Source: Promethearchaeota archaeon (GTDB lineage: Archaea; Asgardarchaeota; Lokiarchaeia; Sigyniarchaeales; SOKP01). From it: a stretch of 22,183 nt of DNA. The notes under the pieces are model-generated. The model was given only the letters and a program-made list of their open reading frames with translations. It was not told the DNA's origin and ran no database searches. Location of the stretch: the NCBI GenBank assembly GCA_048938895.1, contig JBHLLU010000004.1, positions 65,939 through 88,121 on the forward strand, read 5' to 3'. The translations under genes and the position numbers were made by a program. Shown here piece after piece: positions 949 through 16,646 of the stretch. Position 1 is the stretch's first letter, and every line of letters starts with the position of its first letter.

Positions 949-3846
949 TCAGAATGTAATTCCATAACTACGAGCAAAGTATTTTACGATTTCAAATGAA
1001 AAGATACAAATCAAGGAAATCATGAAGCATATTAACCAATCTAAACCTGTTAAATACATAAACATAAAATTAATTCCTGCTTCTGCCAGAGCAACTTGAA
1101 CTCCAGGAATATACATCAACATAATAAAGAGTGCAAATAAGAGTCCGATTATAAGATACATTCTTTTATTACTATCTTCTATTAGACTTCTCACTAATGA
1201 TTTATTTGGACGTCTTATCTGGAAAATTAAGAATGATTCGCAAAAAAATAATGTAACCATTAGCATAGTCAACGTTTTTGCTTCAGTTAGTCCTATTCCA
1301 AATGGATTTAAATTTGGATCGGAAAATGTATCTGATGTGTATAGATAGGAATTATTCCAACTCCCAAACTCTAAATTTTCTGTAAAAATAGGGTAAATAC
1401 CACTATAAGTCAACCAATATACTAAAATCATACTTATTGCGAGTAATAATCCAAAGATGAAGAGCAGAATAATGATATTTTTTGATAGAATTTCCTCAGA
1501 ATCTCTAGGCTTCTCCTTCATCACATCCTCTGATGTTGAGTCAAAGGTAAGGATTAAACCTGGAAACATATGTAATGTTATCGAAAGGAAAACCCATTGA
1601 TAATAAAATGCTTCTCCTAAGAAATATGGTAAATCTAATATAATTGCTAATAAAAATTGAATAATTCCTTCAAATACATTAATACAGATATAGAAGAAGA
1701 CCACTGCGCGTATCCGTGCAAATATACCTCGTCCATGATGAATCCCAGTTACAATTGAATTAAATGAATCATCTGAAATTACCATATCTGAAGCCTCTTT
1801 TGCCACATCTGTTCCAGTGATCCCCATTGCTATCCCCGCATCGGCCATATTTAGCGCTAATGCATCATTTACCCCGTCTCCGGTCATGGCAACCACTTTT
1901 TTCTGTTCTTGGTATTTTTCAACAATAGTCTCCTTATGTTCAGGAGACACTCGAGCAAATACTTTTATATTCGAAAAATCTTCATAAGTTTCTATGTTAG
2001 TAACATCCTTCCCTTCCGCTACAATATCACTATCTTTAGTCACAATGGATATTTGTGAAGCAATTGCTCTTGCAGTAGCGGGAGAATCTCCTGTAATCAT
2101 AACTACATCTACTCCTGCTTCATGGCATTGCTCCACTGAATTCTTCACACCGTCTCGAGGAGGATCCAATATTGTAACAAAACCAATAAATACTAAATCT
2201 GATTCACTAATACTTCTTCCTTCCTCGCCTTCAGGAGGGATATCGTTCATTTCTTTATAACATAAACTTAATATTCGATATCCTTGCTTTGCATAAAGGT
2301 TTACTATTTCCATTACTTTATCCTTAATTTCAGGATTTAGCTCAATTTCTTTATCTTGATATATGATCTTTTTACATAAAGGTAATAATACCTCACTTGC
2401 ACCCTTAGTAAAAGATAAATACACATGATCTCGCTTGTAGAGTTTTGTCATTCTTTTTACAGATGAATCAAAAGGATATTCCGTTATAGATTCATACTCA
2501 TCAAGAAGATAATCACCCATTCCCTTTTGAAACAGTACCATCAATGCACCCTCTGTAGGTGATCCAATAACGTCCCAATTATAGTGTGTTTTTCCACTAA
2601 TCTGAAGTTCATTTTTAACAAGAGCAGAATTATTATTTAGAAATCCAGAAGTCAATAATAATTTAAGGTAAGGATACTCATCAATATGTTTCACATAGGT
2701 TGGATTCTTAGGATCATCCATTAAAACGATGTCTCCTTCAGGAGAATAACCACTTCCAGTAATTCTAAAAATAGATCCATTTGTCCATACATGCTGGACT
2801 GACATTTGGTTTTTAGTTAATGTTCCTGTTTTATCAGAGCAAACAACACTTACTCGACCTAAACTGTCTACCGAAGCAAGATTTCTTATAATCACCCCAT
2901 GATGAGCCATAGCGAGAACTCCGGTAATTAAAACAATAGTCACAAGTAATGGAATATTAATTGGCATTAAATCCAATGCAGAATTTAAACTGGCAACAAT
3001 TTCAAGCCTTCTAAACCCACTCGCTATCCAAATTATCATTAAGGTAATAAACCAGAAGATAAACACGGCTAAGCCCAACCATTTACCAAAATTATTCATT
3101 TTTTTCCTGATTGGGATTTCGCTTGTTCCAGCTTCTTCCAAACCATGGGAAATTTTACCGATTTCAGTACCTCCTCCAGTTTTGACAACAATTGATTTTC
3201 CAGTACCCGTTGTAACATAAGTTCCATAGAATACCATATTAGTGCGTTCACCTATAGAAATATTTTTATTCTTTAATGCAATCCCTTTCTCTGCTTTTCT
3301 AACTGGTTCAGATTCTCCCGTCAAAGAAGCCTCATTAACCACAAGGTTAAAAGACTCAATTATTCTAGCATCTGCTGGAACCTTGTCCCCTTGTTCAAGA
3401 ATTAATAAATCTCCATTCACAATTTCTTTTGTAGGAACTTCAGTCTTTTGTCCCTCTCTAATAATAGTCGAAGTTGGGGCAGTGAGTTCACGTAAAGCCT
3501 TTAGTTTTTTAGTAGCACGATATTGTTGAATAATTGCTACTAAGCAATTTATAAAAACAATTCCGAGTGTCAATGATATAAAAGTTAGATTGCCCTCACC
3601 ACCAAAAAGCCAGGCTAAAAATAATATCATAGCACCAATAAGGTATATAACGATTAACCAATTAAACAATGGTGCTAGATATATTTTAATAAATCCTTTT
3701 GATACTTTAGGAATTTCATTTAAACCAAATTCCATCAAACGATTAGAAGCTTCCTTTTGACTTAAACCATTAACAGGATCAGTTTGAAGTTTCTTATAGA
3801 TATGGTCTAATTCAAGGTTATAAAAATTTTCTTCTGTAGATTCCAT
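949..3846 (-). CDS. P-type ATPase, type II (P2A-like) scaffold with atypical transport site, copy 1
   Basis: LTGES (A domain), CSDKTGTLT (phosphorylation site), KGA (N domain), DPPR, MITGD, FARVSP, MTGDGVND and about 10 hydrophobic segments. M4 reads PINIP rather than PEGLP. Confidence 0.96.
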   Translation of the reverse strand: MESTEENFYNLELDHIYKKLQTDPVNGLSQKEASNRLMEFGLNEIPKVSKGFIKIYLAPLFNWLIVIYLIGAMILFLAWLFGGEGNLTFISLTLGIVFINCLVAIIQQYRATKKLKALRELTAPTSTIIREGQKTEVPTKEIVNGDLLILEQGDKVPADARIIESFNLVVNEASLTGESEPVRKAEKGIALKNKNISIGERTNMVFYGTYVTTGTGKSIVVKTGGGTEIGKISHGLEEAGTSEIPIRKKMNNFGKWLGLAVFIFWFITLMIIWIASGFRRLEIVASLNSALDLMPINIPLLVTIVLITGVLAMAHHGVIIRNLASVDSLGRVSVVCSDKTGTLTKNQMSVQHVWTNGSIFRITGSGYSPEGDIVLMDDPKNPTYVKHIDEYPYLKLLLTSGFLNNNSALVKNELQISGKTHYNWDVIGSPTEGALMVLFQKGMGDYLLDEYESITEYPFDSSVKRMTKLYKRDHVYLSFTKGASEVLLPLCKKIIYQDKEIELNPEIKDKVMEIVNLYAKQGYRILSLCYKEMNDIPPEGEEGRSISESDLVFIGFVTILDPPRDGVKNSVEQCHEAGVDVVMITGDSPATARAIASQISIVTKDSDIVAEGKDVTNIETYEDFSNIKVFARVSPEHKETIVEKYQEQKKVVAMTGDGVNDALALNMADAGIAMGITGTDVAKEASDMVISDDSFNSIVTGIHHGRGIFARIRAVVFFYICINVFEGIIQFLLAIILDLPYFLGEAFYYQWVFLSITLHMFPGLILTFDSTSEDVMKEKPRDSEEILSKNIIILLFIFGLLLAISMILVYWLTYSGIYPIFTENLEFGSWNNSYLYTSDTFSDPNLNPFGIGLTEAKTLTMLMVTLFFCESFLIFQIRRPNKSLVRSLIEDSNKRMYLIIGLLFALFIMLMYIPGVQVALAEAGINFMFMYLTGLDWLICFMISLICIFSFEIVKYFARSYGITF

Positions 3847-3968
3847 AACGAGTCTACCAATGTTAATATTATATTTTAGAGATAATTAAATTCAAAATAC
3901 ATTCAATATAATAAATATCGTATAATAATCATGCCTTTTAATATTACTTTTTTTTGAAAAATAACCAT

Positions 3969-4181
3969 TTATTCCCAATTTTGCTTAAGTTCTTTTTTGA
4001 TAATTTTGGATACGTTATCAACTGAGAATAGGATGAAATTGCAGCATTTGGTTTCCAAAGCTTTTGTTTTAACATATTGCTTTAAATCAATATTTAAGTC
4101 GAACCCGTAGAGTTCATCACATATTACTGAACCTAATTTTTCTTCAAATTTTTTAGCGGTAATGATTGTAATTTTAGAATA
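3969..4181 (-). pseudogene. Start-less 70-codon fragment resembling the C-terminal half of a C_GCAxxG_C_C family redox-active protein
   Basis: Manual translation: YSKITIITAKKFEEKLGSVICDELYGFDLNIDLKQYVKTKALETKCCNFILFSVDNVSKIIKKELKQNWE*. The pattern F.E..GS..C.EL.G.DL...C matches my recollection of that family's C-terminus. No ATG in frame. Confidence 0.6.
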
Positions 4182-7049
4182 TTAAAAGAAAATATTCTTT
4201 TTCCGGGCTATGCTTTTATAAATTTCAATCCCAAATATACCAGGTAGGGCAAAGAATATACAGATTAACCAGTCTGTTCCGCTTAGAAAGATAAAATTTA
4301 TTTGTAAATCCAAACCAAAAACATCATTTATATAATAATTCACAGAATAAGAAAAACAGATATAGAGGATATGCAAGCATAATGTAAACAGACAAATTAC
4401 TAATAAAGTGATATTTAATTCTTCTTTCAAACTTTTATAAAGCGATGAATTTGGTCTTCTAAAGGTCCAAATAAAATTAGTTTCCATAATGTATAGGGTT
4501 GTTATGAACATTGTTCGTGCTTTTTGAGCAACCAATTCAGAATTGGAAGAGAGAGGATTTATATAGCTGATGTGTGGGTTAAAATTCCATTCATTCAACG
4601 GAGCTAAACCTCCTAATGTCAATTGCAAAACTAATACAAGTCCTAAACCCATAAGAAACGCTTGAATTAATAGCATTATCCACATATTTTTGTTTAATAT
4701 TTGTTCTTCATCTCTAGGTGCTTCAAGCATAATATTTTTTGGATGGGAATCGATTACTAGTGCTAATGAGGGAAATGAGTGTACAATGCCAAAAACATAG
4801 ATATGCTGCCATTCAGAGCTAACTAGATCAAATGCAGGTATAAATTCATAAGCGAAAAAAATTGTTGCTTCCATAATATTTAAACATATGAAGAAATAAA
4901 TAATTGTTCTAATTTTGGCAAAAAGACCTCGACCAATACGCACTCCTCTCTCTATTGATGTAAAATTGTCATCTGAAATAACCATATCCGCTGTTTCTTT
5001 CGCTACATCTGTTCCTGTTATCCCCATAGCTATACCTGCATTGGCTAATTTGAGGGCAAGCGAATCATTAATCCCATCCCCGGTCATAGCAACAATGCGA
5101 TCTTCTTGCTGGTAATTTCTAACAATTATCTCTTTATCAGATGGTTCTACTCGTGCAAATACAGATGCTTTTTTGAATTCTTCTTCATCAGTATCTTTTA
5201 TTTCTTTGCCGTTGATAATGCTATCTCCTTCATTATAAATACCCATTTGAGAAGCAATGGTTTTTGCCGTAGCGGGATGGTCCCCAGTTATCATTATAAC
5301 TTTTATACCACCTAATTGACATTCTTCTATTGCTTGCTTCACCCCGATCCGGGGAGGGTCCATGATTGATACAAAACCTAAAAATATCAAATTATTTTCA
5401 ACTTCCTCTCGATTTAAATCGTCAATTTTGGAAAATTTTTTATATGCAATAGCTAACATCCTGTATCCTTGCCCTGCTTGCTCATTTACTTTTTCCATCA
5501 AATAGTTTTTAAGGTTGTCATCAAATTCCTTAACATTTCCATTGCTTTCAAGCATGATGGAAATATCCATTATTCTTTCAGGAGCACCTTTAGAAAAAAT
5601 AAAGGCATTCTTATTCTCATTATTTTGCAGATAAACTGAGCTCATGCGCTTCAATTCAGAACTAAATGAATATTCTTTAACTAATTGGTATCCTCTCCGT
5701 ACATCATAAGGAAGATATCCTGCTTTTTCAGATAATACTAATAATGCTGCTTCTGTGGGTGAGCCCAATGCTCGTCTTACTGCCATCTCTTTTTTTTGTC
5801 CTACTCTTACTTTAACATCTTCAAAGATTAACCGAGAGTTATTATTTAAAACCATTGATTCAATAAACATTCCAAAAGTTTCATTATCCTTCAGATCTAC
5901 TAGTTTTCCATTCTTAGAGATCTTTCCTTCAGAATCATAACCAGAACCAGAAACATCAAACTCCTCATTATTGATCCAGAATTTTTCAACGGTCATTTCG
6001 TTTTTAGTAATTGTACCTGTTTTATCCGAACAAATTATAGAAACTCGTCCTAAAGATTCAATTGCAGATAAATTCTTTATAATTACTCCACTTTGGGCCA
6101 TATTTAACACACCTGTGATTAAAACTAAGGTTGTTAACAGGGGTAAATTTATAGGTAGGATATTTGTAGCCCTTAAAATCGACCTTACTAAGGCACTACT
6201 TACCTCTGATGAAACAAAATTCCCCTCAGAAGCAAGAGTTACTAATTTATAGAAAATAAGCATGTATAAGTTGATAAGAACAATTGTCCCAAGTATATAT
6301 CCTAACCGGTTAAGCTTTCGAGTTAAAGGTATATCTTCAATACTTCCCATCTCGTTTAACGTAGTGGATATCTCACCTATTTTAGTATCTATACCTGTTC
6401 CTGTTATTAAAACTTTAGATCTTCCTGTATTAACATATGTTCCCATAAAGACCATATTTGACTGTTTTTGAATAGGTACATCAAGTTCTTCTAATGTCTC
6501 ATTTCTTTTTTCAACAGGTTCACTTTCTCCTGTTAAAGGTGCCTCGTCTACGGTAAAATTAATATCATTGATGATTCGACCATCAGCAGGGATTTTATCT
6601 CCTTGCTCTAATAAGATTATATCCCCTGGTACTAATTCTCGGTTTGGAATTTCCATTTGATTTCCATCTCTTACAACAGTAGCCTTTAAAGCCGAAATTT
6701 TCTTTAAAGATTCTAAAGCTTTTTGAGCTCTAAATTGTTGAATAATAACAGTCGCTGAATTTATTCCAAATACTGTGAAAGTAATGACTACTTCTCCAGG
6801 AGAGCCTAAAATAACAACTGCAATTCCGGTAATAAGAAGAATAACTATTAGAAAGTTAAAAACTGGAGCAAGATATATTTTCCAAATTGATTTTTTAATT
6901 TTCGGTAGTTCATTATAACCTGAAATTTGATATCTTTTTTCTAAATCGGATGATTTTATCCCTCGGTCTGGATCACTGTTAAATTGTCGTATTATATCGC
7001 TGATTGACTTGTTATAATAGATTTCACTTGAGTTTTTCTGGATTGACAT
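4182..7049 (-). CDS. P-type ATPase, type II (P2A-like) scaffold with atypical transport site, copy 2
   Basis: LTGES, CSDKTGTIT, KGAPE, DPPR, MITGDH, FARVEP, MTGDGIND. M4 reads PINLP. Collinear paralog of 949..3846. Confidence 0.96.
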   Translation of the reverse strand: MSIQKNSSEIYYNKSISDIIRQFNSDPDRGIKSSDLEKRYQISGYNELPKIKKSIWKIYLAPVFNFLIVILLITGIAVVILGSPGEVVITFTVFGINSATVIIQQFRAQKALESLKKISALKATVVRDGNQMEIPNRELVPGDIILLEQGDKIPADGRIINDINFTVDEAPLTGESEPVEKRNETLEELDVPIQKQSNMVFMGTYVNTGRSKVLITGTGIDTKIGEISTTLNEMGSIEDIPLTRKLNRLGYILGTIVLINLYMLIFYKLVTLASEGNFVSSEVSSALVRSILRATNILPINLPLLTTLVLITGVLNMAQSGVIIKNLSAIESLGRVSIICSDKTGTITKNEMTVEKFWINNEEFDVSGSGYDSEGKISKNGKLVDLKDNETFGMFIESMVLNNNSRLIFEDVKVRVGQKKEMAVRRALGSPTEAALLVLSEKAGYLPYDVRRGYQLVKEYSFSSELKRMSSVYLQNNENKNAFIFSKGAPERIMDISIMLESNGNVKEFDDNLKNYLMEKVNEQAGQGYRMLAIAYKKFSKIDDLNREEVENNLIFLGFVSIMDPPRIGVKQAIEECQLGGIKVIMITGDHPATAKTIASQMGIYNEGDSIINGKEIKDTDEEEFKKASVFARVEPSDKEIIVRNYQQEDRIVAMTGDGINDSLALKLANAGIAMGITGTDVAKETADMVISDDNFTSIERGVRIGRGLFAKIRTIIYFFICLNIMEATIFFAYEFIPAFDLVSSEWQHIYVFGIVHSFPSLALVIDSHPKNIMLEAPRDEEQILNKNMWIMLLIQAFLMGLGLVLVLQLTLGGLAPLNEWNFNPHISYINPLSSNSELVAQKARTMFITTLYIMETNFIWTFRRPNSSLYKSLKEELNITLLVICLFTLCLHILYICFSYSVNYYINDVFGLDLQINFIFLSGTDWLICIFFALPGIFGIEIYKSIARKKNIFF

Positions 7050-7157: not shown

Positions 7158-8099
7158 TTATAGTTTTAATTCTTGAGGATTTCCCAAGATATCTTTAAGT
7201 ACATGATATTTCTTTCTAATAGTAGTACTTGAAAATTTACTATATTTTTCAATAAGATTTTGGGTAAAAATCTTTCTATTCTCCAAAGATTGTCCTATGT
7301 AATATATTAATCCCGCAGTAAAGGCCTTATAATTTAAATTTTGAATTTGAGAATAGGGTACTATTTGGAGAATTTTATCAGCTAATAGCTGCATCTCAAT
7401 TTTAGTTTTTTCAAATTCTGATTTATTTGAAAAAAACTCTCTGATCTCTTCGAAGGGAATACTATTTATATCTTTTTGAAACACTATTTTAACTCTATTT
7501 TTGATATCTTTTTCTATGGCTGCAGCGTCTTTCCTTTTATCTAACATTTTTTCTGTTTTTTTAACTTTAACCATAGCGTTGGATAACATTTTTTTATTGA
7601 TCTTATGACCTAATTCCTTAGAAACATCAATGAATTCTTCAATTCGTACATTTGTTGTATCTTTTATTTCTAACCAAATGATTGCAAGAAAAATTATTAC
7701 CATATTTTGATAATTATGTCTATGGTATTTATTATAACGTAAATATCGGTTTTTAATTTCGCGATTTTTGACATTATCAATATTTAAACCAATACCATGT
7801 CCCTTTAGTAATTCTATCGTTTTCTTTTGTTCCGAAAAATCAGACTGGTAATCTCGAAACCATTTCTCAAGCGTTTGAATTCTCTCATATTTCTCACGAA
7901 TAATAGGATCTTGCAAAGCTTTTGAATCACTAACACGAATGCGTCGTTCATAGTCTCTTTGCGAGTCTGAATAAAATTCACCATATGATTCTATATCATT
8001 AGAAGCTAATTTTTCTTCTAAGATTAAACCACAATCTTGACAAATTAATTCGCCCCCTTCTTTTTTTACATTTAAATGAGGACACGATGAGCTTTCCAT
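7158..8099 (-). CDS. Divergent TFB/TFIIB-like protein (Zn ribbon plus cyclin-like repeats)
   Basis: N-terminal CPH-x11-CQDCG. C-terminal KAFTAGLIYYIG...TQNLIEKYSKFSSTTIRKKY aligns by eye with KGLAAACIYIAA...TQSKVADIAKITEVTLRSRA of the neighbouring TFB. ATG at 8099 preferred over the TTG at 8123. Confidence 0.75.
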   Translation of the reverse strand: MESSSCPHLNVKKEGGELICQDCGLILEEKLASNDIESYGEFYSDSQRDYERRIRVSDSKALQDPIIREKYERIQTLEKWFRDYQSDFSEQKKTIELLKGHGIGLNIDNVKNREIKNRYLRYNKYHRHNYQNMVIIFLAIIWLEIKDTTNVRIEEFIDVSKELGHKINKKMLSNAMVKVKKTEKMLDKRKDAAAIEKDIKNRVKIVFQKDINSIPFEEIREFFSNKSEFEKTKIEMQLLADKILQIVPYSQIQNLNYKAFTAGLIYYIGQSLENRKIFTQNLIEKYSKFSSTTIRKKYHVLKDILGNPQELKL

Positions 8100-8240
8100 A
8101 TTTTGATCTTTATTACTTCTCAAAAAAATATTATTTAATATCTAGTATTTATAGCAAATTTTTATAAATTTCAAAAACAATAATAAGTAAAAATATAATT
8201 GCATAAAAAATTTGTTCTTACATTTATAGTAAAAACTGAG

Positions 8241-8813
8241 ATGGTACATATGGAGCATAAAAAAGTTCTCGCATTTCTTAAAATTATTAGCTACATTATC
8301 ATAATTATCTCATACCTCGAAATTTGTTTTTTCTTTGCATTTCATTTTATAGAGTTTAAATATTTAGAGATAAATCCAATTCTTTTATCAGATTTTATGT
8401 ATGATTCCCCTTACATATCATTAACGGGAACAGTATTATGGATCTATTTAATAATTTCTATGCTTTGTTTTCTAGTATTGGGGTTTTTTATCTTTAAAAC
8501 GGTTAGATCCAATAAAATAGGAAGCAAATCACTAGCAAAACTAATGGTTGTAATAGGAATGGTTGTTTTAATCGGAGCACTTGTGAAAATGAATTTCTTA
8601 GTGCTTCTTGGTAAAACAAAGATTTCTACTCTTTATGGTTCAATACCATTTCAGACATCTTTATATAATTTTGATATTACTGCTTTCACACCAGCAGTAT
8701 TTTGGATTTATTTTATATCAGTTAATTGTGCTTTAATGATCTCAGGATTGGTGGTAACTGGTATAGGAATTAAGTTCTCACTGTTATTAGAAAATCCTGA
8801 ACCAGAAAAATAA
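8241..8813 (+). CDS. Hypothetical membrane protein, about 4 TM helices
   Basis: Four long hydrophobic segments with basic loops. ATG at 8241 or 8250 is more likely than the TTG at 8199. Confidence 0.8.
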   Translation: MVHMEHKKVLAFLKIISYIIIIISYLEICFFFAFHFIEFKYLEINPILLSDFMYDSPYISLTGTVLWIYLIISMLCFLVLGFFIFKTVRSNKIGSKSLAKLMVVIGMVVLIGALVKMNFLVLLGKTKISTLYGSIPFQTSLYNFDITAFTPAVFWIYFISVNCALMISGLVVTGIGIKFSLLLENPEPEK

Positions 8814-8839: not shown

Positions 8840-9766
8840 TCAAGTAAGCTTGCTTTTAATTTGTTTGGCTCGGCTCCTTAAAGTAACTTCGGTTATTTTG
8901 GCAATATCTGCCACTTTTGATTGTGTTTTCCGAATAGAACCATTTTTTGCGGCTATATAGATACACGCAGCAGCTAAGCCCTTTGGATCCTTTCCTGTTC
9001 TTTTTAATCCGTTTCTAGAAGCATCTTTAAGCATATTAATCGCTTCTTTCTGAATTTGAATTGGTAAGTCTAATTCATTTCCAAACCGGAATACAAGTGA
9101 TTCAGCGGTAATTGGCTGGTATCTAAGGTTAAGTTCAGGTAAAACTTCCCTAATTATCATAGCAAGACTTCTATGGACTGTTCTTCTTGGAGTTAATGAA
9201 GCTTCGCAAACCTCATCAAGGAGGCGGGGAAAATCATGAACTCGTATTGCAGCATATAATGAACCTGCAATAAATCCATTAATGGATCTTCCCATGGTTA
9301 ACTTTTTCTTAGCGACTATACTATATACTTTCCATGCAGTTTCAGCGATATATTCAGGAATATTTAGTTTAGATGTAAGCATTTTTAGTTTGGGTTTTGC
9401 TTCCCAAAAATTCCTTTCAATACTAGAAATAAGAGAGTTTTGAATTTTTGAGAGACGAGAAAAAAGAGCTTGTTCTTTCGCACCTATACTTTTACCCTTA
9501 GAATCAGTTTTTGTGTTTGGAAGCATAGTGCGGGGACCAAAATCCCTCCAACGTGGTTCTGTTCGACGACGATTCTGAATTTCTTCGACTGTATATGCCC
9601 TTCTTTCATTTCCAACAAATGTTCTTTCAAAAATTAACCCGCAATTTAAACACACTTTATTACCATCCCGAGCCTCAACAAATGGGTTATCACAACAATA
9701 TGTATGAACTGGTACGTTTTCATCGACTTTATCATCAAAATAACGGTTACGATATTGTTCGTTCAT
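8840..9766 (-). CDS. tfb: Transcription initiation factor IIB (archaeal TFB paralog)
   Basis: Zn ribbon ...VCLNCGLI, B-reader-like ERRAYTVEE, ERN linker, cyclin repeat 1 with GRS...AGSLYAA.R....PR.L.E, cyclin repeat 2 with GKDPKGLAAACIY, and HTH TQSKVADIAKITEVTLRSR. Confidence 0.95.
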   Translation of the reverse strand: MNEQYRNRYFDDKVDENVPVHTYCCDNPFVEARDGNKVCLNCGLIFERTFVGNERRAYTVEEIQNRRRTEPRWRDFGPRTMLPNTKTDSKGKSIGAKEQALFSRLSKIQNSLISSIERNFWEAKPKLKMLTSKLNIPEYIAETAWKVYSIVAKKKLTMGRSINGFIAGSLYAAIRVHDFPRLLDEVCEASLTPRRTVHRSLAMIIREVLPELNLRYQPITAESLVFRFGNELDLPIQIQKEAINMLKDASRNGLKRTGKDPKGLAAACIYIAAKNGSIRKTQSKVADIAKITEVTLRSRAKQIKSKLT

Positions 9767-12761: not shown

Positions 12762-13157
12762 TTATTCAACTTTAAACCCTACTGGAGATTTATCGAATGG
12801 GTCTCCGTTATAATTAACAGTAATTTCCTCTCCTTTAGATATATTTCGTATTGCTGTGTATTTAATTGATTTATTTTTATAATTATAACTATATTCAACA
12901 TTGGGTGTATAAGAATGATTTATGAACTGATTGACGCTTAGTGAAATTGCTGATTCATAATGACCTTTATATTTCGGATCATCCCATTCAAAGATATAGC
13001 GTGATAAAATAGTATCCTTGATTAAATCCCATTCCTTATTAGAAATAAGAATTATATGTGCTATCTCCACTGTTTTACCTTTTTCTATATCTTTTTTGGC
13101 AAAAACACCTTTTCCTTTTGTGTAGGAAATAAATTTTACTTCCGTTAGTTTATTCAT
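12762..13157 (-). CDS. Stand-alone SET-domain protein (putative protein-lysine methyltransferase), copy 2
   Basis: KGKGVFA...I.KG, FINHSYTPN, A.RNI.KGEEITVNY. ATG at 13157, or TTG at 13169. Confidence 0.93.
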   Translation of the reverse strand: MNKLTEVKFISYTKGKGVFAKKDIEKGKTVEIAHIILISNKEWDLIKDTILSRYIFEWDDPKYKGHYESAISLSVNQFINHSYTPNVEYSYNYKNKSIKYTAIRNISKGEEITVNYNGDPFDKSPVGFKVE

Positions 13158-13203
13158 TTCATATCTCAATATTTAAATTTAATATTTATTCAAAATACGG
13201 ATA

Positions 13204-13608
13204 TTATTCTACTTCAAACCACATTGGACTTTTGTCATCAACGAAACCATTATAATTCACTGTTAGTTCTTCTCCCTGAGATATATCTTTTATTGCAGAA
13301 AATTCTATAACATTATTGTCATAATCGTAAAGATATTTTAAATTAGGATCATAGGAATGGTTGATGAATTGACTTATACTCAGAGTGATAGCATTTTTAA
13401 ATTCTGGCATATGCTTTGGGTCTTCCCAAATGTAACAGTAGTTATAAAGTATTGTTTTGCTAATCTTCTTGAATTCCTTATTAGGGATAGGAATTACATA
13501 TGCAATGTCTATAATAGTTCCTTTTGTAATTGGTTTTTTTGCAAATGCTCCTTTCCCTTTCTTTTCAGAAGCTTTCTTAACTTTAATAAAGTCGTGTAAT
13601 ATTATCAC
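13204..13608 (-). CDS. Stand-alone SET-domain protein, copy 1
   Basis: KGKGAFA, FINHSYDPN, A.KDI.QGEELTVNY. GTG start. Clear paralog of the adjacent gene. Confidence 0.93.
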   Translation of the reverse strand: MIILHDFIKVKKASEKKGKGAFAKKPITKGTIIDIAYVIPIPNKEFKKISKTILYNYCYIWEDPKHMPEFKNAITLSISQFINHSYDPNLKYLYDYDNNVIEFSAIKDISQGEELTVNYNGFVDDKSPMWFEVE

Positions 13609-14256: not shown

Positions 14257-15528
14257 TTACTCTCTATACTTTTCAGGGTTAACACACTTTCGCCATTCTA
14301 AAACTGTTTCTTTTGGACCTAAACCTATAAGGCGATCACCTTCTTGAAAAATAAAATCTGGAGCGAAGCGATAAATCCATTTGTTTTCTCTCTTTAAGGC
14401 AATAATATGAAAACCACGTTTATATCTTCTATCTTGCAGTTCGCTATATGATTTTTCCTTGAAAAATGAGTCTTCAGATAATGTTTCTCTTACTACGATT
14501 TCTGAAGTCTCTCTAATAGCTTGCTGGAGAATAGGGTGAGGTTCAAATCCTTTAATTATATTTTCTGCAATATGTGTTGCTGCATCTGCAATAAGTTCAC
14601 ATGAAAAGATAATTCGCATAATTCCTGTTAGATCTCGTGGTGTTTCTACGAGTTTGACAAAGTCGAGGAGGTCTTTTTCAAATGCTAAATTAAGCCCATC
14701 CATTAATTCTTCCATTTCTAAGATATCTTCGGCAAGTTCATCATTATTAAGGAAAATAGCAGCCAAAGCTAATTCAATCATAGTTTCTGAGATATCTGTA
14801 ATTAAGACATAATTTTTTTGAAGTTCTTCAATTTTTTCACAAATATCGGAATTTTCAAAATCAAGCAATAGATCTGTCTTTTGCTCCCCAATTTCAAATG
14901 AAAAGGGTTCAAGATCATTACATTGGGCTTTTAGTTCTATTATCGGTTGTATTTCCCCCTTTACAATTAAGATATCCTTTAATAGAATTTTTTCAGTTTT
15001 TTCAAAAAGCCATTCATCGCCTCTCCGGATTGCGATTAAGTCAACACCATGTTTAGATCTAAAGTGAATATCAGCTCTAACCTGTCCAATAAAATTACAG
15101 TCTTTATTTACTATAATTTTTACAATGGGCTCAGGAACAAAACTTATATCACTAAATAATTGGATAAAGTATTGGATGTCATTATTGATATACACAACTC
15201 GAGCTATATCACTCAGAGCATCGGAAATTTTATCAATTGAATAGCCCATAACCACAATAGGTTCTAACTTTTTGGCACCCTCTTGACCTTGTGGGTGAGC
15301 TTGTATTATTTGAAAATTTAGTAAAAAGGTAAGTTCATGAATTCTTTGCTCAATTTTATAAACTTCGTCAGCTAATTCTTTGCTACCAAATTTTATAGCA
15401 CTATAAGCCAAATCAATCATTAAATCTATATTCTGTTTCATCTCTCTTATGATTTCTTTAAGGGAGAGTGGCTTATATTTAAACTTTTTACTACGTTTGG
15501 GCATATTGTTGTATTCCTCATTGTTCAT
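14257..15528 (-). CDS. Soluble regulator with tandem-duplicated PhoU plus TrkA-C (RCK_C) modules
   Basis: Two repeats: LMIDLAYSA....ELADEV..IE / DKISDA / GVDLIAIRRGDEW, and TMIELALAA....ELAEDI..ME / ELIADAA / GFHIIALKRENKW...GDRLIGLG. Confidence 0.88.
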   Translation of the reverse strand: MNNEEYNNMPKRSKKFKYKPLSLKEIIREMKQNIDLMIDLAYSAIKFGSKELADEVYKIEQRIHELTFLLNFQIIQAHPQGQEGAKKLEPIVVMGYSIDKISDALSDIARVVYINNDIQYFIQLFSDISFVPEPIVKIIVNKDCNFIGQVRADIHFRSKHGVDLIAIRRGDEWLFEKTEKILLKDILIVKGEIQPIIELKAQCNDLEPFSFEIGEQKTDLLLDFENSDICEKIEELQKNYVLITDISETMIELALAAIFLNNDELAEDILEMEELMDGLNLAFEKDLLDFVKLVETPRDLTGIMRIIFSCELIADAATHIAENIIKGFEPHPILQQAIRETSEIVVRETLSEDSFFKEKSYSELQDRRYKRGFHIIALKRENKWIYRFAPDFIFQEGDRLIGLGPKETVLEWRKCVNPEKYRE

Positions 15529-15540
15529 ATTAATTTGATT

Positions 15541-16092
15541 TTATATAAATGTTTTTATAAAGATTATAATGAATAAAGGGGTAAGAAAATCTGACAATGA
15601 TGTTATAAAGGGAATAAGAAAATTATTTGGATCAGTACCACGTTTAAAAAGGTAGATTGCACTTAAAAATAATGAAATGAACATGATAAAAAAGAGTATT
15701 AAGATTGTTAGAAGCATAATTAAAATCATTGCAATTGGATTTACCAATTCGACCCCAGTTATAATTCCAACAAAAATTGCGGTGATTATTAAAAAACCAA
15801 GACTTATTAAGAGGGTTAAAAGAAGTCCATAGAAATCGTCTTTAATTCTTTTAGATTTCCTGATTTTAGGTAAGATGGTCCCTATATACAGATGGGTAGT
15901 TAGTCTTGATACTAAAACTGTCGAGATATCCCCAATTAAAGAGTTTAATGCTGGTAATATTAAAAGGAAAATAGGGATAGAATAGAGAATTTCATCATTA
16001 AATGATAATAATGTTCCAGAAAATAAACCAAAAACAGAAGATAAGATTACAATAATAATCGATTCTTTGAAGATTTTTAAAAAGTAATTCAT
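15541..16092 (-). CDS. MgtE/SLC41-type membrane domain, C-terminal-repeat-like half
   Basis: PALNSLIGD, SRLTT.LY.G, DPNNFLIPFITSLSD and 5 TM segments. The ATG at 16092 overlaps the upstream stop as TAATG. Confidence 0.88.
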   Translation of the reverse strand: MNYFLKIFKESIIIVILSSVFGLFSGTLLSFNDEILYSIPIFLLILPALNSLIGDISTVLVSRLTTHLYIGTILPKIRKSKRIKDDFYGLLLTLLISLGFLIITAIFVGIITGVELVNPIAMILIMLLTILILFFIMFISLFLSAIYLFKRGTDPNNFLIPFITSLSDFLTPLFIIIFIKTFI

Positions 16093-16646
16093 TAAGGCAC
16101 CCCCAAGAGTATTAGTGTTAAGAAGAAGCAAAAAACCGTGAAAAAATCATCAACAGCAGTCATAACAGGATTTACAATATTATTGGGGTTCAATCCTTTT
16201 TTAAAAGCAATATAATTTAATCCCGTTGAGCAGGGAATTGAAATAGAAAGAGTGAGGATTATTGATATTAAAGGAATAGTAAAATATTCTGAAATTGTAA
16301 GAGCAATTAAATGTAAAATTACTATATTTAAAAAAAGTGAAAACAACCCAATAATAATTGCGGTTATAATTGCTAAAAGATATGTAGCAAAAATATTTTC
16401 TAGCCAAGACCTTTTAGAAAAAGTACCAATAATCAGATCACGAGAAGTTCTTGCAATAAAGGGACCACTTAGATTTCCTCTCAATGAAAGGAGTGCAGGA
16501 ATAATTAAAATCAGGGCAATAAAGCTATCAAATGGTACAATTAAAAGAGATAAAATTATACCAGCTAAAATATCTCCAATAATAGAGACTGATTCTGATG
16601 GAAAGGTTTCCTTAATAATTTTACTCTTAGTATCTTGAATCTCCAT
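16092..16646 (-). CDS. MgtE/SLC41-type membrane domain, N-terminal-repeat-like half
   Basis: PALLSLRGN (PX6GN), GLNPNNIVNPVMTAVDD and 5 TM segments. SD-like GAGGAAGG upstream of the ATG. Confidence 0.88.
   Translation of the reverse strand: MEIQDTKSKIIKETFPSESVSIIGDILAGIILSLLIVPFDSFIALILIIPALLSLRGNLSGPFIARTSRDLIIGTFSKRSWLENIFATYLLAIITAIIIGLFSLFLNIVILHLIALTISEYFTIPLISIILTLSISIPCSTGLNYIAFKKGLNPNNIVNPVMTAVDDFFTVFCFFLTLILLGVP

Follow-up and report, generated by a model that had tools for sequence, protein, structure and literature searches.

To our knowledge, the subfamilies of P-type ATPases are defined by the signature of their transport site, and each new signature has so far corresponded to a new cargo. 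The closest described systems to the proteins considered here are the P2A pumps (SPCA/PMR1, LMCA1 and SERCA), whose fourth transmembrane segment (M4) carries the motif PEGLP and whose sixth (M6) carries an Asn and an Asp; in SERCA, this M6 Asp is common to both Ca2+ sites and is essential. This work concerns two tandem genes found in 22,183 bp of DNA from the Asgard archaeon Promethearchaeota archaeon (assembly GCA_048938895.1, contig JBHLLU010000004.1, positions 65,939 to 88,121), a stretch hereafter called the window, in which position 1 is the first nucleotide. Their products, P0001 and P0002, share with the P2A pumps the fold, the domain order, the length, the motifs TGES, DKTGT, DPPR and GDGxND, the spacing of 43 residues between the M4 Pro and the phosphorylated Asp, and a SERCA-like M5 N..E pair and M8 Glu. 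However, they belong to a clade that carries PxNxP instead of PEGLP in M4 and, in M6, a His instead of the Asp and a Ser, Phe or other residue instead of the Asn, and that forms a separate branch scoring below every equivalog cut-off. An earlier examination made from the sequence alone (hereafter the sequence-only reading) had proposed that they are P2A-scaffold pumps with a rewired, flippase-like transport site. The data presented here indicate that they probably represent a distinct monophyletic P2-type subfamily, centred on Asgard archaea and here called PxNxP/His, that lacks the canonical Ca2+ specificity.

Other P-type ATPases can be compared with this clade in more limited ways. The alpha subunits of P2C pumps resemble it in the alignment of M5–M10, in the M5 N..E pair and in a basic RRxN-S-like stretch after M8, but the clade has neither their M4 Glu nor their M6 Asp pair; no beta-subunit-like neighbour was seen at the 21 loci compared below. 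The P3A H+-ATPases share a hydrophobic residue at the position of SERCA E309 and the concept of a built-in positive residue replacing the counter-ion, but keep the M6 Asp where the clade has His. P1B-4 pumps, whose motifs are SPC and HEGxT, belong to another subfamily with another helix count and its own motifs, and offer a functional analogy only. According to excerpts of PMC10654040, the internal counter-ion of a P1B-4 metal pump is a His within the membrane, a role taken by an Arg in P3A pumps and by a Lys in KdpB.

Two paralogous pumps with intact catalytic motifs

According to their open reading frames (ORFs) and translations, P0001 (949..3846, minus strand) is a P-type ATPase of PINIP/His type of 965 amino acids (aa) and P0002 (4182..7049, minus strand) is a paralogous P-type ATPase of PINLP/His type of 955 aa. 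The two genes lie on the same strand, P0002 being the upstream gene and P0001 the downstream gene of the tandem pair, and are separated by a 335-bp spacer (3847..4181). Their products are 41% identical. Both contain five Pfam domains above cut-off (E1-E2_ATPase, Cation_ATPase_N, Cation_ATPase_C, Hydrolase and Cation_ATPase), which is the full Pfam set of a type-II P-type ATPase.

The actuator domain of both proteins reads TGES (3310..3321 in P0001, where it is not DGET, and 6522..6533 in P0002, both on the minus strand). The phosphorylated residue of DKTGT is Asp338 in P0001 (2833..2835, minus strand), 43 residues after the M4 Pro, and D342 in P0002 (6024..6026, minus strand), and the motifs DPPR and GDGxND were re-derived from both translations. 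The sequence-only reading had considered both pumps to look catalytically intact; the presence of all four motifs and of the domains agrees with this, and every motif and codon coordinate that it gave was recovered from the sequence.

A coupled and conserved change in the transport site

The transport site is where the two proteins depart from canonical pumps; its positions are named here after SERCA residues (E309, N768, E771, N796, D800 and E908), with a numbering that we assume to apply. In P0001, the M4 motif P295-I-N297-I-P299 (2950..2964, minus strand) replaces PEGLP, and His759 (1570..1572, minus strand), in the unwound part of M6, replaces the Ca-site Asp. P0002 has PINLP in M4 (P299-I-N-L-P303, 6141..6155, minus strand) and His757 in M6 (4779..4781, minus strand). 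The residues of site I are present in both proteins, namely the N..E pair retained in M5 and a Glu in M8: N723-V-F-E726 (1669..1680, minus strand, with N723 at 1678-1680 and E726 at 1669-1671) and Glu870 (1237..1239, minus strand) in P0001, N724-I-M-E727 (4869..4880, minus strand, with N724 at 4878-4880 and E727 at 4869-4871) and Glu856 (4482..4484, minus strand) in P0002. In the HMMER alignment of P0001 with human SPCA1 (8iww), PINIP faces PEGLP and His759 faces the Asp of NIIMDGPP; in that of its last 266 aa with Na,K-ATPase, N723/E726 face the M5 N..E and His759 faces the second M6 Asp. In the AlphaFold2 model of P0001 (mean predicted local distance difference test score 83.6, predicted template modelling score 0.79), the M4 helix is interrupted at 294-296 and the M6 helix at 757-760; I296, N297 and H759 lie in these breaks, and thus where P2 pumps coordinate ions.

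These features are kept throughout the clade. Among 33 clade representatives, which are 34-56% identical to P0001, P295, E726 and H759 are invariant, and N297, P762, E870 and Q750 are conserved in at least 90%. The M4 Glu is found in all 93 canonical representatives and in none of 31 clade representatives. When the M4/M6 pairs were read in 361 aligned relatives with both positions resolved, a sample assembled by similarity to the clade and not at random, 243 had non-Glu/His and 105 had Glu/Asp; the rarer pairs were Glu/Glu (7), Glu/Ser (2), Glu/Asn (1) and Glu/Ala (1). The M6 His thus occurs in 243 of the 245 non-Glu sequences, the exceptions being P0145 (Val/Gln) and P0171 (Ser/Asp). Judged from these alignments, the M4 and M6 changes are coupled beyond chance, and the ligands of Ca site II have been replaced as a coupled, conserved set: M4 Glu by Ile, Leu, Val, Phe or Trp, M4 Gly by Asn and M6 Asp by His. 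Alignment and clade conservation therefore agree with the earlier proposal that the canonical site-II ligands are lost and the M5 N..E and M8 Glu retained.

Further differences accompany this set. The residue at the E309 position varies by subclade (PINIP, PINLP, PIN[IL][VI], P[FV]NFP, PW[NS]FP), and about 17 other clade-specific positions differ from canonical relatives. They include the loss of polar or acidic residues conserved in canonical relatives (Gln59Pro, Glu108Gln and Thr244Ile, at positions that we take, from SERCA topology, to lie in M1, in M2 and before M3) and a change from Pro to Leu at 663 in the hinge of the phosphorylation domain. Three residues before the M4 Pro, P0001 also has an Asp, D292 (2971-2973), which is found in P0001-type orthologs (LDLMP, MDLLP); the equivalent residue is Ser, Thr, Asn, Lys or Gln in other subclades and Ala in PFNFP types, as in canonical pumps. 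D292 may be an extra ligand that tells the two tandem paralogs apart.

A monophyletic clade centred on Asgard archaea

An exhaustive search of 50%-identity representatives, from which the best 150 hits were taken, gave 130 full-length hits: 31 with M6 His and a non-Glu M4, 93 canonical ones with Glu and either Asp or Glu, and 6 others. In a FastTree phylogeny of these 130 hits and two pumps from the source genome, the sequences with the signature form one branch (32 of 132 rows, Shimodaira–Hasegawa-like support 100) of length 0.35. An IQ-TREE phylogeny (LG+G4, quick search) of 62 rows again groups them in one branch (35 of 62, Shimodaira–Hasegawa approximate likelihood-ratio support 100). The group labels come from M4 columns kept in the alignment, which introduces a small circularity, and the comparison with eukaryotic P2B, P2C, P2D, P4 and P5 pumps rests on profile scores and the fold search.

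P0001 and P0002 fall in different subclades in both trees and are, as far as these phylogenies indicate, old paralogs of one clade. The identical substitutions in two diverged paralogs, which the sequence-only reading took as a sign of selection for another cargo, therefore go back to a single remodelled ancestor and are not convergent. The signature marks a monophyletic clade among homologs, with support 100 in both trees. That the change is under selection is supported, since it persists in clade members that share only 34-59% identity with P0001.

In the database, the 120 best relatives of P0001 show identities of 71-98% to it. Those that are named carry Asgard or metagenome labels, except one labelled '[bacterium]'; the Asgard labels seen are Lokiarchaeota, Promethearchaeota, Thor-, Heimdall-, Hod-, Odin- and Hermodarchaeota. 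Their source annotations go no further than 'cation-translocating P-type ATPase' or 'Ca2+-transporting ATPase'. Among the 80 related loci listed by a contig search, one (L008) is close to P0001 (71% identity); the other 79, from diverse bacteria and archaea, encode proteins 28-37% identical to P0001.

Distribution

On a profile built from the 33 clade representatives, 236 members score 1035 bits or more and 106 canonical pumps 936 bits or less, P0145 lying between them at 997 bits; this separation calibrates E <= 1e-300 as a clade-level threshold. Genome searches scored only the two best candidates per genome. At this threshold, the phylum of the source genome shows a match in 282 of 400 genomes, in 69 of 90 high-quality genomes and in 63 of 85 genera; any P2-like match (E <= 1e-150) was found in 378 of the 400. 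Several families of this phylum had no clade-level match (for example f18, 0/12 genomes; f24, 0/7; f21, 0/6). At E <= 1e-290, a match was obtained in only 2 of 401 genomes of a second archaeal phylum (one of them G400, with one locus labelled Bathyarchaeota) and in none of 351 genomes of a third.

Of the two hits of the second phylum, one belongs to the PINIP/His type proper, the other being a variant of P0145 type, with PVSIP in M4 and Gln for the M6 His. This variant (L141, G400:C12:277766-280681, minus strand) is 75% identical to P0145 and may have been transferred out of Asgard archaea and then have changed its specificity again. Within the clade, the basal PW[NS]FP subclade has relatives labelled Promethearchaeota and Helarchaeota at 59% identity, and a PINFP/His member (P0286) is labelled Candidatus Lokiarchaeum ossiferum. 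The protein retrieved from Promethearchaeum syntrophicum (P0363) is a canonical PEGLP/Asp pump. Some relatives of 1400-1700 aa (P0169, P0240, P0253, P0261, P0263 and P0271) have the ATPase only in their C-terminal half; P0169, which reads PEGLS with an M6 Asp, also carries PF19991.

Relationships with characterised subfamilies

Both proteins belong to the P-type superfamily, scoring 291 (P0001) and 275 bits (P0002) on the HAD-IC profile TIGR01494 (cut-off 62.3). Their scores on the subfamily profiles, given in the same order, all fall below cut-off: PMR1-type TIGR01522 (491 and 441 bits, cut-off 798.3), SERCA-type TIGR01116 (428 and 430, cut-off 703.4), IID TIGR01523 (421 and 387, cut-off 645), IIC TIGR01106 (408 and 352, cut-off 946.1), IIIA TIGR01647 (345 and 329, cut-off 615.5), V TIGR01657 (230 and 246, cut-off 618) and IV, the flippase profile TIGR01652 (106 and 94, cut-off 431). 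The heavy-metal profiles gave 233-237 bits (cut-off 346), and four other clade members scored 421-521 bits on TIGR01522 and TIGR01116, below both cut-offs. No curated subfamily profile accepts either protein, and neither is therefore a member of such a subfamily.

The residues of the transport site agree with these scores. The pumps were rejected as P2A Ca2+-ATPase equivalogs, since they have only the site-I residues, without PEGLP in M4 and with His for the M6 Asp; as P3A H+-ATPases, the M6 residue being His and not Asp; as P2C Na,K- or H,K-ATPases, the M4 Glu and the M6 Asp pair being absent; and as P5 ATPases, M4 reading PINxP and not PPxLP.

The P2A scaffold suggested by the sequence-only reading holds only in part. 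The best full-length profiles are indeed those of P2A pumps and the best full-length matches in the PDB are SPCA1 (4.9e-119), the closest solved structure, and LMCA1 (1.4e-115), but the profile scores stay below cut-off and the M5–M10 half aligns best to P2C alpha chains. This segment alone has its best match with the alpha chains of Na,K- and non-gastric H,K-ATPases (1.4e-8), and the match includes the RRxN-S-like basic stretch after M8. The 50 PDB matches listed by Foldseek for the P0001 model are all SERCA, SPCA, Na,K- or H,K-ATPases. The fold is thus that of a ten-helix P2 pump, with the machinery of phosphorylation and dephosphorylation intact.

No description of the PxNxP/His signature was found in the full-text literature (supplements and subscription literature being outside this scope), nor any paper on ATPases among the titles listed for the motif words PINLP, PINIP and PINxP. 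Excerpts of PMC7016017 and PMC10456885 contain nothing on the clade.

Predicted mechanism and cargo

Four polar residues of the membrane core remain and are invariant or nearly so, namely E726 (M5), H759 (M6), N297 (M4) and E870 (M8), and they are predicted to form a single, site-I-like binding site. The hydrophobic M4 residue would fill the former site II, which would be lost, and site I would turn into the only site, its negative charge halved and one of its ligands a nitrogen. One cation would be taken from the cytosol in the E1 state and released outside in the E2P state. The imidazole would then pair with the two glutamates as a built-in counter-charge, which would allow dephosphorylation without a counter-ion, and the His may also stabilise the empty site and trigger this step. 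We give this one-site mechanism an even chance. Its central idea, the His as built-in counter-charge, was already put forward by the sequence-only reading and is viable by analogy with the internal counter-ions cited above.

Our first choice of cargo, held tentatively, is one divalent borderline transition metal (Mn2+, Fe2+, Zn2+, Co2+ or Ni2+). Such a metal would fit the predicted site better than Ca2+, because the site offers two carboxylates, one soft nitrogen ligand and an amide. Several observations weigh against this reading. Part of the PFNFP subclade has Leu or Ala where P0001 has the M5 Asn (N723), and the nested variant of P0145 type carries Gln in place of the M6 His. The M5–M10 segment is closest to Na,K- and non-gastric H,K-ATPases and not to the P2A pumps. 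Moreover, the family occurs almost throughout its phylum (282 of 400 genomes) and is strongly conserved there (the best 120 relatives of P0001 are at least 71% identical to it), and such prevalence and conservation suit a housekeeping ion such as Na+ or H+ no less than the detoxification of a metal. Neither a metal regulator nor a chaperone nor any other functional hint was seen in the neighbourhoods (window and 20 loci). Finally, the metal is predicted from the residues of the site. What stands of the sequence-only reading is the altered specificity of a conserved, uncharacterised clade; the kinship with or resemblance to flippases does not, for the reasons given below.

Alternative cargoes

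The sequence-only reading compared the site to that of P4 flippases. Two points favour a lipid or head-group transporter or a prokaryotic forerunner of the P4 ATPases: the M4 Pro is followed, at the E309 position, by an Ile, which PISL also has, and the host lineage is Asgard. According to excerpts of PMC11460456, the Asp of DGET is unique to P4 ATPases and a P4-specific insert exists in the linker between M4 and the phosphorylation domain. Both proteins read TGES and not DGET, and PIN(I/L)P and not PISL, and their M4 Asn is placed differently from the P4 M4 Asn invoked by the sequence-only reading. The M4 Pro and the phosphorylated Asp are 43 residues apart, as in the canonical relatives aligned, a spacing that leaves no place for the P4-specific linker insert. 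On the flippase profile, the 86-147 bits of six clade members overlap the 79-103 bits of three canonical pumps, far from the cut-off of 431, and the Foldseek matches listed are P2 pumps only. A hydrophobic residue at the E309 position is not specific to flippases either, because the P3A proton pump of the source genome itself reads PVALP. No conserved gene for an accessory subunit lies beside the pumps at the 21 loci; a genome-wide search for CDC50 homologs was not made. These data make a flippase very improbable, and any bearing of the pumps on how P4 flippases arose finds no support in the TGES motif, the spacing or the profile scores.

Among ions, the strongest competitor of a transition metal is a monovalent cation or a proton (Na+, K+ or H+), moved by a pump that would perhaps be an ATP-driven membrane energiser or a Na+ extruder. 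E726 and E870 would carry the ion, and protonated His759 would provide the counter-charge, like the Arg of P3A pumps or the Lys of the H,K-ATPase; the built-in positive residues described for P3A and KdpB (PMC10654040, excerpts) provide precedents. The housekeeping-like prevalence and conservation, the presence of only two carboxylates in the site, the loss of conserved polar or acidic residues at 59, 108 and 244, and the resemblance of M5–M10, including the RRxN-S-like stretch, to Na,K- and non-gastric H,K-ATPase alpha chains (1.4e-8) all point in this direction. However, the site lacks the Na,K-ATPase ligands at the M4 Glu and at the two M6 Asp positions, Na+ and K+ are not usually bound by His, P0001 remains far below the P2C (408 vs 946.1 bits) and P3A (345 vs 615.5 bits) cut-offs, and a bona fide P3A H+-ATPase scoring 974 bits is already encoded in the genome. 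We rate a monovalent cation or proton as only slightly less probable than a transition metal.

The other candidates are much less probable. A divergent P2A pump exporting one Ca2+ (or Mg2+) per cycle with the site-I-like residues only would account for the best full-length profile and PDB hits, which are Ca2+ pumps (SPCA1, LMCA1 and the PMR1-type profile at 491 bits), for the retained M5 N..E and M8 Glu, and for the source annotations as 'Ca2+-transporting ATPase'. Excerpts of PMC7997004, a paper on the Asgard transportome, also attribute to Asgard proteomes orthologs of a putative Ca2+-ATPase (TC 3.A.3.2.21), by which either the clade or the canonical pump may be meant. Yet the M4 Glu is gone, the M6 Asp is invariantly His, the clade sits on its own long branch (0.35), and a canonical PEGL/Asp pump coexists in the genome, so that this explanation is improbable. 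About as improbable, or slightly more so, is an organic cation (polyamine or quaternary amine) held between the glutamates and aromatic or hydrophobic residues of M4 and M6. The Phe or Trp at the E309 position in some subclades (PFNFP, PWNFP), the conserved aromatic residue after the His (H-x-F-P) and the two buried glutamates would suit such a cargo, but M4 is not PPxLP, the P5 profile gives similar scores for the clade (205-265 bits) and for canonical pumps (221-259 bits; cut-off 618), and no polyamine genes were seen nearby in the window and the compared loci. Any other cargo takes what remains of these estimates.

Pump complement and gene neighbourhood

The source genome, 98.7% complete in 174 contigs, was found to encode seven P-type ATPases. 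Besides the His-type pair of the window, they are a canonical P2A-like pump, a P3A pump and three P1B pumps. The canonical pump has PEGLI, NFDE and NIATDGIP and scores 623 and 590 bits on the P2A models. The P3A H+-ATPase (G000:C96, locus L119, 1497-3986, plus strand; 829 aa) scores 974 bits on TIGR01647 (cut-off 615.5), reads PVALP in M4 and keeps the M6 Asp (LNDLP). The P1B pumps carry CPC, CPC and CPH, and none of the seven has SPC in M4. The export of Ca2+ and H+ is already covered, because the genome has a separate canonical pump and a P3A pump.

The window was compared with 20 loci from 20 genomes, giving 21 loci; every one of their 28 full-length pump ORFs reads P[IL]N[IL]P and has the His. 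The tandem arrangement, with a P0002-type gene upstream of a P0001-type gene on the same strand, is found in all seven loci of the source family and in none of the 14 others. Across families, these 21 loci have no conserved neighbour besides the pump itself. The neighbours shared within family f31 are PanB, a subtilase, an MFS transporter, a DUF1858 protein, a metallo-beta-lactamase-fold protein and glutamine synthetase.

In the window, the pump pair is flanked by GNAT acetyltransferase and TFIIB-like genes. The gene lying directly upstream of the pair (7158-8123) encodes a 321-aa protein with only a weak match to the TFIIB zinc ribbon, and is near a gene for a TFIIB-repeat protein (8840-9766). 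This 321-aa gene and a 204-aa ORF (8199-8813) accompany the pair in 5 further loci of the source family. Further away, two overlapping short ORFs (15541-16131 and 16092-16646, minus strand) each encode one MgtE divalent-cation-transporter domain and adjoin a gene for a 423-aa protein with PhoU and TrkA_C domains (14257-15528, minus strand); the three together suggest an MgtE-like channel in split form and its cytosolic regulator. At 12762-13608 (minus strand) lie two tandem genes for small SET-domain proteins (135 and 134 aa).

Implications

Beyond its status as a distinct clade, PxNxP/His might constitute a sixth, unnamed functional P2 subfamily of Asgard origin, devoted to a cargo carried by no characterised P2 pump; we rate this somewhat short of even. 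The cargo would then be either a transition metal, bound by the His and two Glu, or Na+ or H+ moved by a pump free of counter-ion, and the conserved tandem pair would represent two specificities. If the Na+/H+ version were true, the pump would energise the membrane of fermentative Asgard archaea.

Most of the genomes sampled in this phylum, which is commonly held to include the ancestors of eukaryotes, conserve the signature, and proteins of the clade are annotated everywhere as generic or calcium pumps. Knowing their cargo would correct a widespread annotation and would add to the picture of ion or metal homeostasis in Asgard archaea. As a member occurs in the cultured species Lokiarchaeum ossiferum, the clade is open to experiment.

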